Shown here: positions 58,239 through 58,266 of the stretch, one piece after another
How the letters are laid out: each line of letters begins with the position of its first letter
How positions within the stretch are numbered: the stretch's first letter is position 1
Source: Candidatus Heimdallarchaeota archaeon
Lineage (GTDB): Archaea; Asgardarchaeota; Heimdallarchaeia; Heimdallarchaeales; Heimdallarchaeaceae
Length of the DNA: 64,000 bases
Direction: 5' to 3'
Assembly: GCA_030603365.1 (NCBI GenBank)
Contig: JAUVXV010000007.1
Span: 1 to 64,000, forward strand
The notes under the pieces: generated by a model
Database searches by the model: none
Told to the model about the DNA's origin: nothing
The model's input: only the letters and a program-made list of their open reading frames with translations
Made by a program: the position numbers and the translations under genes

Positions 58239-58266
58239 ATGCAGTATAACTTATGTTATACCGCAC
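58239..58266. other. dif: Candidate dif (Xer recombination) site
   Basis: ATGCAGTATAA-CTTATG-TTATACCGCAC: 11-6-11 geometry, arms 9/11 inverted-complementary, inner TATAA/TTATA, in a 365-bp intergenic gap. Confidence 0.65.

Follow-up and report, generated by a model that had tools for sequence, protein, structure and literature searches.

The 28-bp dif-like palindrome described here is probably the core site of the sole Xer-family tyrosine recombinase of its genome, and the recombinase gene and the site would together form an acquired, accessory single-recombinase module (probability about 0.6). The palindrome lies in a stretch of 64,000 nucleotides (the window), which is taken from contig C11 of a 33%-GC assembly (3.65 Mb in 17 contigs, 89% complete). 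The host is a Heimdall-group Asgard archaeon, whose closest named protein homologues come from MAGs of 'Candidatus Heimdallarchaeaceae'. A preliminary description of the window had interpreted the palindrome as the chromosome-dimer resolution site of an Xer recombinase encoded about 35 kb away and as a possible marker of the replication terminus. The pairing of site and enzyme is retained here. A role as the dimer-resolution site of the lineage is not, because the recombinase gene belongs to an accessory insertion of ~1.15 kb that is absent from all relatives searched. As judged from the sequence comparisons, it is highly likely that recombinase and site were acquired horizontally and are accessory, rather than representing a lineage-wide dif system, and the module is probably self-mobile. 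The coordinates of the features are compiled in Table 1.

Table 1 Features of the window that are discussed in the text
Feature	Position	Strand	Remarks
Xer-family tyrosine recombinase gene	22584-23672	-	362 aa, TTG start
Putative full core site (28 bp)	58239-58266	.	ATGCAGTATAA-CTTATG-TTATACCGCAC
Left arm	58239-58249		ATGCAGTATAA
Spacer	58250-58255		CTTATG
Right arm	58256-58266		TTATACCGCAC
Half-site	23694-23706	.	AATGCAGTATAAC; exact 13-bp copy of 58238-58250, same orientation
Single-gene insertion relative to congeners	22559-23706	.	~1.15 kb: ~25 bp, recombinase gene, 22 bp and arm copy
Arm-like left-junction sequence	22547-22557	.	AAATATTATAA; homologous to AAGGATTATAA of the G023 empty site
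SBP_bac_5 gene	56132-58138	+	Pfam; left neighbour of the spacer with the site
Pectate-lyase-like gene	58504-60144	+	Weak Pfam match Pectate_lyase_4; 237 bp downstream of the site

The 28-bp site and its genomic context

The palindrome has been confirmed in the sequence as originally reported, and it shows the dif-type build of two imperfect inverted 11-bp arms, a 6-bp spacer and the inner ATAA/TTAT. The reverse complement of the right arm, GTGCGGTATAA, is identical to the left arm at 9/11 positions. The site is located within a non-coding spacer of 365 bp (58139-58503), which is bordered by an SBP_bac_5 gene on one side and by a pectate-lyase-like gene on the other; a Gtr1/RagA-type GTPase gene is found close by. 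By itself, the palindrome is weak evidence and within chance expectation. In the whole genome there are 1,293 repeats of the 11-6-11 type with at least 9/11 matching arm positions (about 22 per 64 kb); arms matching at 10/11 positions are found in 76 of the genome's 11-6-11 repeats and TATAA-N6-TTATA in only 3. Moreover, GTATAA-N6-TTATAC with at most one mismatch appeared one or more times in 31/100 shuffled versions of the window. The generalised pattern RTGCNNTATAA-N6-TTATANNGCAY, with up to two mismatches, finds the window site alone, in agreement with the predicted single copy per chromosome, in an assembly that is 89% complete and might therefore lack a further site or recombinase gene. 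The site stands out because it is unique in the genome, because its left arm is repeated at the recombinase gene and because a near-identical site accompanies a homologue of the recombinase.

The strand of the site can form a modest hairpin (-6.2 kcal/mol). A terminator, an RNA element or a tRNA was rejected as an explanation of the palindrome: no T-run follows it, the region 57500-59000 has no Rfam match and no tRNA was found in the window. At 58281-58298, starting 15 bp downstream of the 28-bp site, GTTATAG is directly repeated at a distance of 11 bp. Both copies resemble GTTATAC, the inner portion of the right arm, and may be accessory binding sites or due to chance. A weaker intergenic 11-6-11 repeat, TTGCAGTTTAA-TTGCAT-TTATACTGAAA, was detected on contig C8 (C8:5604-5629, L002:1501-1526). 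Each of its arms agrees with the left arm of the window site at 9/11 positions. This repeat was left out of the system, given that about 0.15 such sites are expected by chance according to our estimate and that it borders an intergenic element of ~150-300 bp with many copies in the genus.

The pectate-lyase-like gene downstream of the site is accessory, with homologues in 2/82 other genomes, namely G011 (68% identity) and G029 (38%); it is considered here as the context of the site, and membership in the recombinase system is not implied. In the genome G005, the SBP gene directly precedes the Rag-like GTPase gene; three things are extra in the window, namely another SBP paralogue, the site-bearing spacer and the gene resembling pectate lyases. 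No site-like sequence was found near the pectate-lyase-like homologues of G011, where the upstream part is missing, and G029, and no second site at the far end of the gene in the window, which is followed by another gene after just 9 bp. A cassette bounded by sites and carrying the pectate-lyase-like gene was rejected for these reasons. Two tandem SBP_bac_5 paralogues occupy 54009-58138, as opposed to a single gene in G005. The G005 protein resembles paralogue 1 marginally more in its N-terminal part and paralogue 2 more in its C-terminal part; a tandem duplication in the window's genome is suggested by the comparison. Further copies of the SBP_bac_5 family are encoded on the contigs C4 and C7.

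The recombinase

The recombinase was identified as an Xer-type enzyme by Pfam, NCBIfam and solved structures, as had been proposed, with the correction that its gene lies on the minus strand. It is the sole PF00589 gene in the assembly, and the protein matches both PF00589 and PF02899. The NCBIfam models for XerC, XerD and XerA_Arch (NF040815) gave 233.5, 224.7 and 220.2 bits, respectively; the XerC and XerD scores are below their own cut-offs, and the XerA_Arch cut-off of 220 is reached at the borderline. The best solved relative by PDB sequence match is XerA from P. abyssi (4a8e). The catalytic R-K-H-R-H-Y set is complete, with R219, K242, H305, R308, H331 and Y340 being invariant in the clade alignment, and the TTG start codon is backed by the alignment to homologues that begin with MPKD. 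The clade is small and comprises 12 sequences that are 52-84% identical. Beyond it, the next-best database matches are bacterial XerC proteins with ~40% identity.

The protein consists of an N-terminal HTH-like helical domain (residues 3-48), a linker (56-67), a SAM-like core-binding domain and the catalytic domain. An AlphaFold2 model (pLDDT 78.7) predicts that the helices 3-7, 11-22, 28-35 and 39-48 form an HTH-like bundle, which is followed by a disordered basic linker and the canonical Xer body. A fold search with this model returned the XerA structures 5hxy and 4a8e at the top and then XerH. The N-terminal part has no Pfam match. All 12 members of the clade share the N-terminal extension of ~80 aa, and the conserved HTH-like domain, which together with the linker lies within residues 1-75, is absent from XerA, XerC and XerD. 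The domain could bind accessory or arm-type sites, as does lambda Int.

Evidence linking the site to the recombinase

The 28-bp site and the recombinase are very probably a cognate pair, as had been suggested before, and this view is based on a 13-bp copy of the left arm at the recombinase gene and on the gene-site pair of the homologue L033. The half-site, in which the left arm is preceded by a single flanking base and followed by the initial base of the spacer, is located 22 bp upstream of the start codon of the recombinase gene. The 13-mer occurs exactly twice in 3.65 Mb, at the full site and at the half-site, and ~0.3 copies per genome are expected from the base composition. Only 7 of the 1,293 comparable 11-6-11 repeats share 13 or more bases with the two flanks of the recombinase gene. 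No second arm follows the half-site. On the minus strand, its TTATAC is located ~28-33 bp upstream of the start codon, which is the position expected for the TATA box of a leaderless transcript, and the half-site could serve as TATA box and operator. Since the leftover half-site overlaps the expected position of the TATA box, the recombinase may repress its own promoter.

The metagenome contig L033 carries the only close homologue with a readable context and is the one close locus from the metagenome scan. Its recombinase is 54% identical to that of the window and has the same N-terminal extension. At L033:686-713, 61 bp upstream of the recombinase gene, there is an intact 11-6-11 site, ATGCATTATAA-CAAAAG-TTATAAAGCAT, whose arms agree with each other at 10/11 positions and differ from the left arm of the window site by 1 and 2 bases. 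When one arm was allowed at most one mismatch and the other at most two relative to the arms of the window, only the window site and the L033 site were recovered from ~5.7 Mb, that is, the 3.65-Mb genome and 2.04 Mb of fetched loci including about 200 loci of more distant recombinases. Furthermore, the 12 bases preceding the start codon are alike in the window and in L033 (TTGTGATTTCAC and TTGTGATTCAAA, respectively), which indicates that the two upstream regions are homologous up to the gene-proximal arm. Scans of genome and viral contigs for further close loci of the clade returned only distant recombinases with at most 38% identity. No empty site was found for the L033 insertion, the flanks of which match relatives over one 218-aa gene only. 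L033 also contains, at 317-343, a degenerate sequence that resembles a site but has a spacer of 5 bp, ATGTGGTATTC-CTAAG-TTATACCGAAG. This sequence precedes the full site of L033 by 343 bp and includes part of the stop codon of the ORF upstream, and its right arm agrees with the right arm of the window site at 9/11 positions.

The recombinase gene as an insertion

The MMPL gene (20036-22408) and the gene for a 554-aa protein (23842-25506) on the two sides of the recombinase gene are directly adjacent in the genomes G023, G020, G016, G013, G024, G012 and G005. At least seven congeners lack the ~1.15 kb between them, and the extra DNA occurs in the window alone. Homology to G023 ends at 22558 and returns from ~23712, ungapped and in register. 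At the right junction, the sequence AAGGATTATAA-TCCCTT-TTGAATTTGTT of G023 corresponds to ATGCAGTATAA-CCTTCT-AGTATTTTGTT of the window (p = 0.0005 for the right-side homology), and the right end of the insertion coincides with the arm/spacer boundary. The arm-like sequence of the G023 empty site, which is homologous to the left-junction sequence of the window, also aligns in register with the arm copy of the right junction; the left-junction sequence may be a secondary (pseudo-)site. The comparison of the junctions thus places the insertion between an arm-like target and a true arm, with the crossover point at the arm/spacer boundary. Xer-type cleavage at this boundary is established for XerA, XerCD and XerH (PMC8371274).

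A target-site duplication around the insertion was rejected, with p = 0.07 for the left junction against the G023 target and p = 0.5 for the left against the right junction. At the reciprocal junction downstream of the recombinase gene there is no recognisable second arm, which is why the integration event is not fully reconstructable. The spacer of the full site (CTTATG) differs from that of the half-site (CCTTCT), and a standard two-step exchange between the two is thus not expected. The possibility that the two 13-bp copies delimit an integrated element of 34.5 kb was also rejected, as the interval is collinear with a contig of G023 (C63, which covers 19-48 kb of the window) and contains ordinary housekeeping-like genes. 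Only the recombinase gene itself is inserted, so that the locus is not a repeat-bounded mobile element of the prophage, ICE or IMEX kind. The full site is 34.5 kb away from the recombinase gene, and its route to that position is not explained by the acquisition of the module.

The insertions that are specific to the window's genome have empty counterparts at L248:1479-1506 in G023 and at L263:2447-2463 in G005. Both contain GGATTATAA followed by a pyrimidine-rich 6-mer, which is TCCCTT in G023 and CCTTGT in G005, where the empty spacer reads TTGGATTATAA-CCTTGT. The frequency of the 9-mer is 1.0e-5 per position. The two loci suggest that GGATTATAA together with a pyrimidine-rich stretch may be a preferred secondary site resembling the arm of the recombinase.

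Distribution in relatives

Conservation of the site in related genomes had been expected for a dif site of the lineage, and its absence had been named as evidence against that reading. In fact, no match beyond background was obtained in 24 congeners and 82 class genomes. The site pattern with 20 specified bases and up to two mismatches is absent from the 24 congeners and from 16 other genomes of the order. A search of the 82 other class genomes with the generalised pattern gave 2 matches, as compared to 1 match for the reversed control. A blastn search with 57600-58900 against the genus matched the coding part of the SBP gene only, leaving the spacer DNA without a match. Likewise, searches with cut-offs of E <= 1e-40 or 1e-50 across 30 further species of the family and 82 of the class returned no homologue of the recombinase, and the module is present in 1/83 genomes of the class. 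The gene is accordingly not a vertically inherited XerA core gene, as no homologue was found in these family and class genomes and it is part of the ~1.15-kb insertion.

Within the genus, PF00589 proteins are sporadic: 12/24 congeners have one and in 12/24 none was found. None of the congener proteins that were checked belongs to the clade of the window's recombinase, and the one from G002 is 28% identical to it. Moreover, no tyrosine recombinase of any kind was found in the closed genome G045 or in the 95%-complete genome G041. The idea of a conserved dif elsewhere in the genus was also discarded, because no conserved Xer is present there and the sporadic PF00589 matches belong to other families. 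The sporadic occurrence or absence of tyrosine recombinases implies that the Heimdall family has no conserved Xer/dif system, and the relatives without a tyrosine recombinase, which include a closed genome, argue that the lineage does not depend on Xer/dif.

Alternative explanations

The site could be a bona fide chromosomal dif at which the Xer enzyme encoded 35 kb away resolves dimers in the replication terminus region. We consider this unlikely, although the 11-6-11 build with the inner ATAA/TTAT, the single copy in the assembly and the presence of one Xer-type recombinase are in line with it, and although an acquired module could have taken over the role in dimer resolution. Also in its favour, xerA and dif are apart in some archaea and archaeal XerA works without FtsK (PMC5357621). 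What weighs against a chromosomal dif is that site and recombinase are unconserved in the 24 congeners and 82 class genomes, that relatives including a closed genome manage without any tyrosine recombinase and that accessory DNA adjoins the site. Furthermore, the cumulative GC skew on the 153-kb contig C11 of the 17-contig assembly climbs steadily from ~20 to 105 kb and does not turn at 58 kb, which lends no support to the suggestion that the site marks the terminus; we regard such a role as very improbable. For an actual role of the site in dimer resolution, our analysis leaves the chances somewhat below even.

A rather improbable alternative is that gene modules attach or land at the site, similar to an integron or a pdif module, where the pectate-lyase-like gene and perhaps the recombinase gene would be cassettes inserted at the site or at look-alike secondary sites. 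The pectate-lyase-like gene adjoining the site is indeed accessory, and in G005 it does not occur between the genes for SBP and GTPase; moreover, the empty spacers of both G023 and G005 contain GGATTATAA and a pyrimidine-rich stretch. On the other hand, the genome has one full site only, with none at the other end of the pectate-lyase-like gene and no site-like sequence near its homologues in G011 (again with the upstream part missing) and G029, and the integron integrase model TIGR02249 reaches only 110.8 bits, far below its cut-off of 265 bits. Hardly probable at all is a palindrome that arose by chance in non-coding, AT-rich DNA, or a hairpin or operator unlinked to the recombinase. The 1,293 equally good repeats, the 31/100 shuffles and the modest hairpin speak for such an explanation, but it accounts neither for the 13-bp arm copy at the recombinase gene nor for the near-identical full site beside the L033 homologue, which has no other match in 5.7 Mb, and the palindrome has no T-run as a terminator would and no Rfam or tRNA match. 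An acquired module of recombinase and cognate site is thus preferred as the explanation.

Relation to known systems

Single-recombinase Xer modules include XerS/difSL of streptococci and lactococci and XerH/difH of Helicobacter and Campylobacter. The archaeal 'xerA/dif modules' are of this type as well (PMC5357621). The module in the window would work like a single-recombinase Xer/dif system and is not a member of the conserved archaeal XerA/dif systems, the integrons, the IMEX or the repeat-bounded islands. As in the known single-recombinase modules, there is one Xer-family recombinase and one imperfect palindromic site, and gene and site travel together. Like difSL beside xerS, the L033 site is directly upstream of its gene; the full site is adjacent to the gene in L033, whereas only a single arm is found there in the window. 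The window module differs in being accessory and split into a half-site at the gene and a full site 34.5 kb away, in the extra N-terminal helical domain of the protein and in the insertion junction that the gene has at its own arm. Moreover, difSL has a spacer of 11 bp and the window site one of 6 bp.

The archaeal XerA/dif systems of Thermococcales, Sulfolobales and Thermoplasma (PMC2958812; 4a8e, 5hxy) share with the window site the 11-6-11 build, the inner TATAA/TTATA, the non-coding location and the single copy, and XerA provides the best fold and sequence matches of the recombinase. However, these systems are conserved among relatives and located at a polarity switch, whereas the window site is neither conserved nor at a visible turn of the skew. 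XerA also begins at the SAM-like domain, and the nearest sequences of the window protein outside its clade are bacterial XerC proteins. The IMEX that integrate at dif, such as CTXphi, VGJphi, TLCphi and the gonococcal island, resemble the insertion in their hybrid junction of one good arm and one non-arm, in the crossover at the arm/spacer border and in the mismatched spacers. Unlike the insert in the window, which is the recombinase gene itself, IMEX have no recombinase and use the host XerCD; the 34.5 kb between the two arm copies are core, syntenic DNA and not an element. Integrons with IntI, attI and attC have also been reported in Archaea (PMC9668308). They have in common with the module a site just upstream of a tyrosine recombinase gene, as in L033, and an accessory gene adjoining the site, as in the window. 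By contrast, the window has no cassette array, its site is a plain duplex 11-6-11 palindrome and not a folded attC, and its recombinase is far below the IntI cut-off. In a literature search, work on XerA/dif of Thermococcales, Sulfolobales and Thermoplasma and on archaeal integrons was found, and no characterised Xer site of an Asgard or Heimdall archaeon.

Proposed mechanism and biological significance

According to Xer-type chemistry, one recombinase monomer would bind each of the 11-bp arms (ATGCAGTATAA and GTGCGGTATAA), the Y340 tyrosines would cut both borders of the spacer CTTATG and strand exchange would proceed through a Holliday junction. The recombinase gene appears to have entered its present locus by the same chemistry, its upstream end being an exact left arm that stops at the arm/spacer boundary. 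In such an event, a circular molecule with gene and site would have recombined with a secondary site, for which the arm-like AAGGATTATAA in the same register would have been the target, and the pattern of the insertion is as expected for it. Provided that the enzyme is produced, the two copies of the one full site on a dimeric chromosome would recombine with each other, and the site would consequently work like dif. A more far-reaching and tentative proposal, to which we give clearly less than even chances, is a minimal self-mobile Xer/dif module: a recombinase with an added N-terminal DNA-binding domain would travel with its own dif-like site, use its own chemistry to enter secondary sites that resemble an arm (GGATTATAA with a pyrimidine-rich spacer), leave a one-armed promoter/operator scar and seed a dif-like site in Heimdallarchaeaceae that are otherwise without Xer.

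The gene, the full site and the half-site provide a defined enzyme and substrate for binding, cleavage and resolution assays. The xerS and xerH modules have been assumed to move by way of their own sites. Direct evidence that an Xer gene can move in this way is rare; the insertion described here, with its end at the arm/spacer boundary, provides such evidence, and we know of no earlier junction showing it. A self-mobile module, if true, would offer a direct view of the spread of an Xer/dif module between genomes. The family of the window's host belongs to the closest archaeal relatives of eukaryotes. Tyrosine recombinases are not encoded by most relatives, one of which has a closed genome, so that the resolution of chromosome dimers by Xer/dif, as given in textbooks, does not apply to the Heimdall family, and a self-mobile module would raise the question of how most Heimdallarchaeaceae resolve their chromosome dimers.
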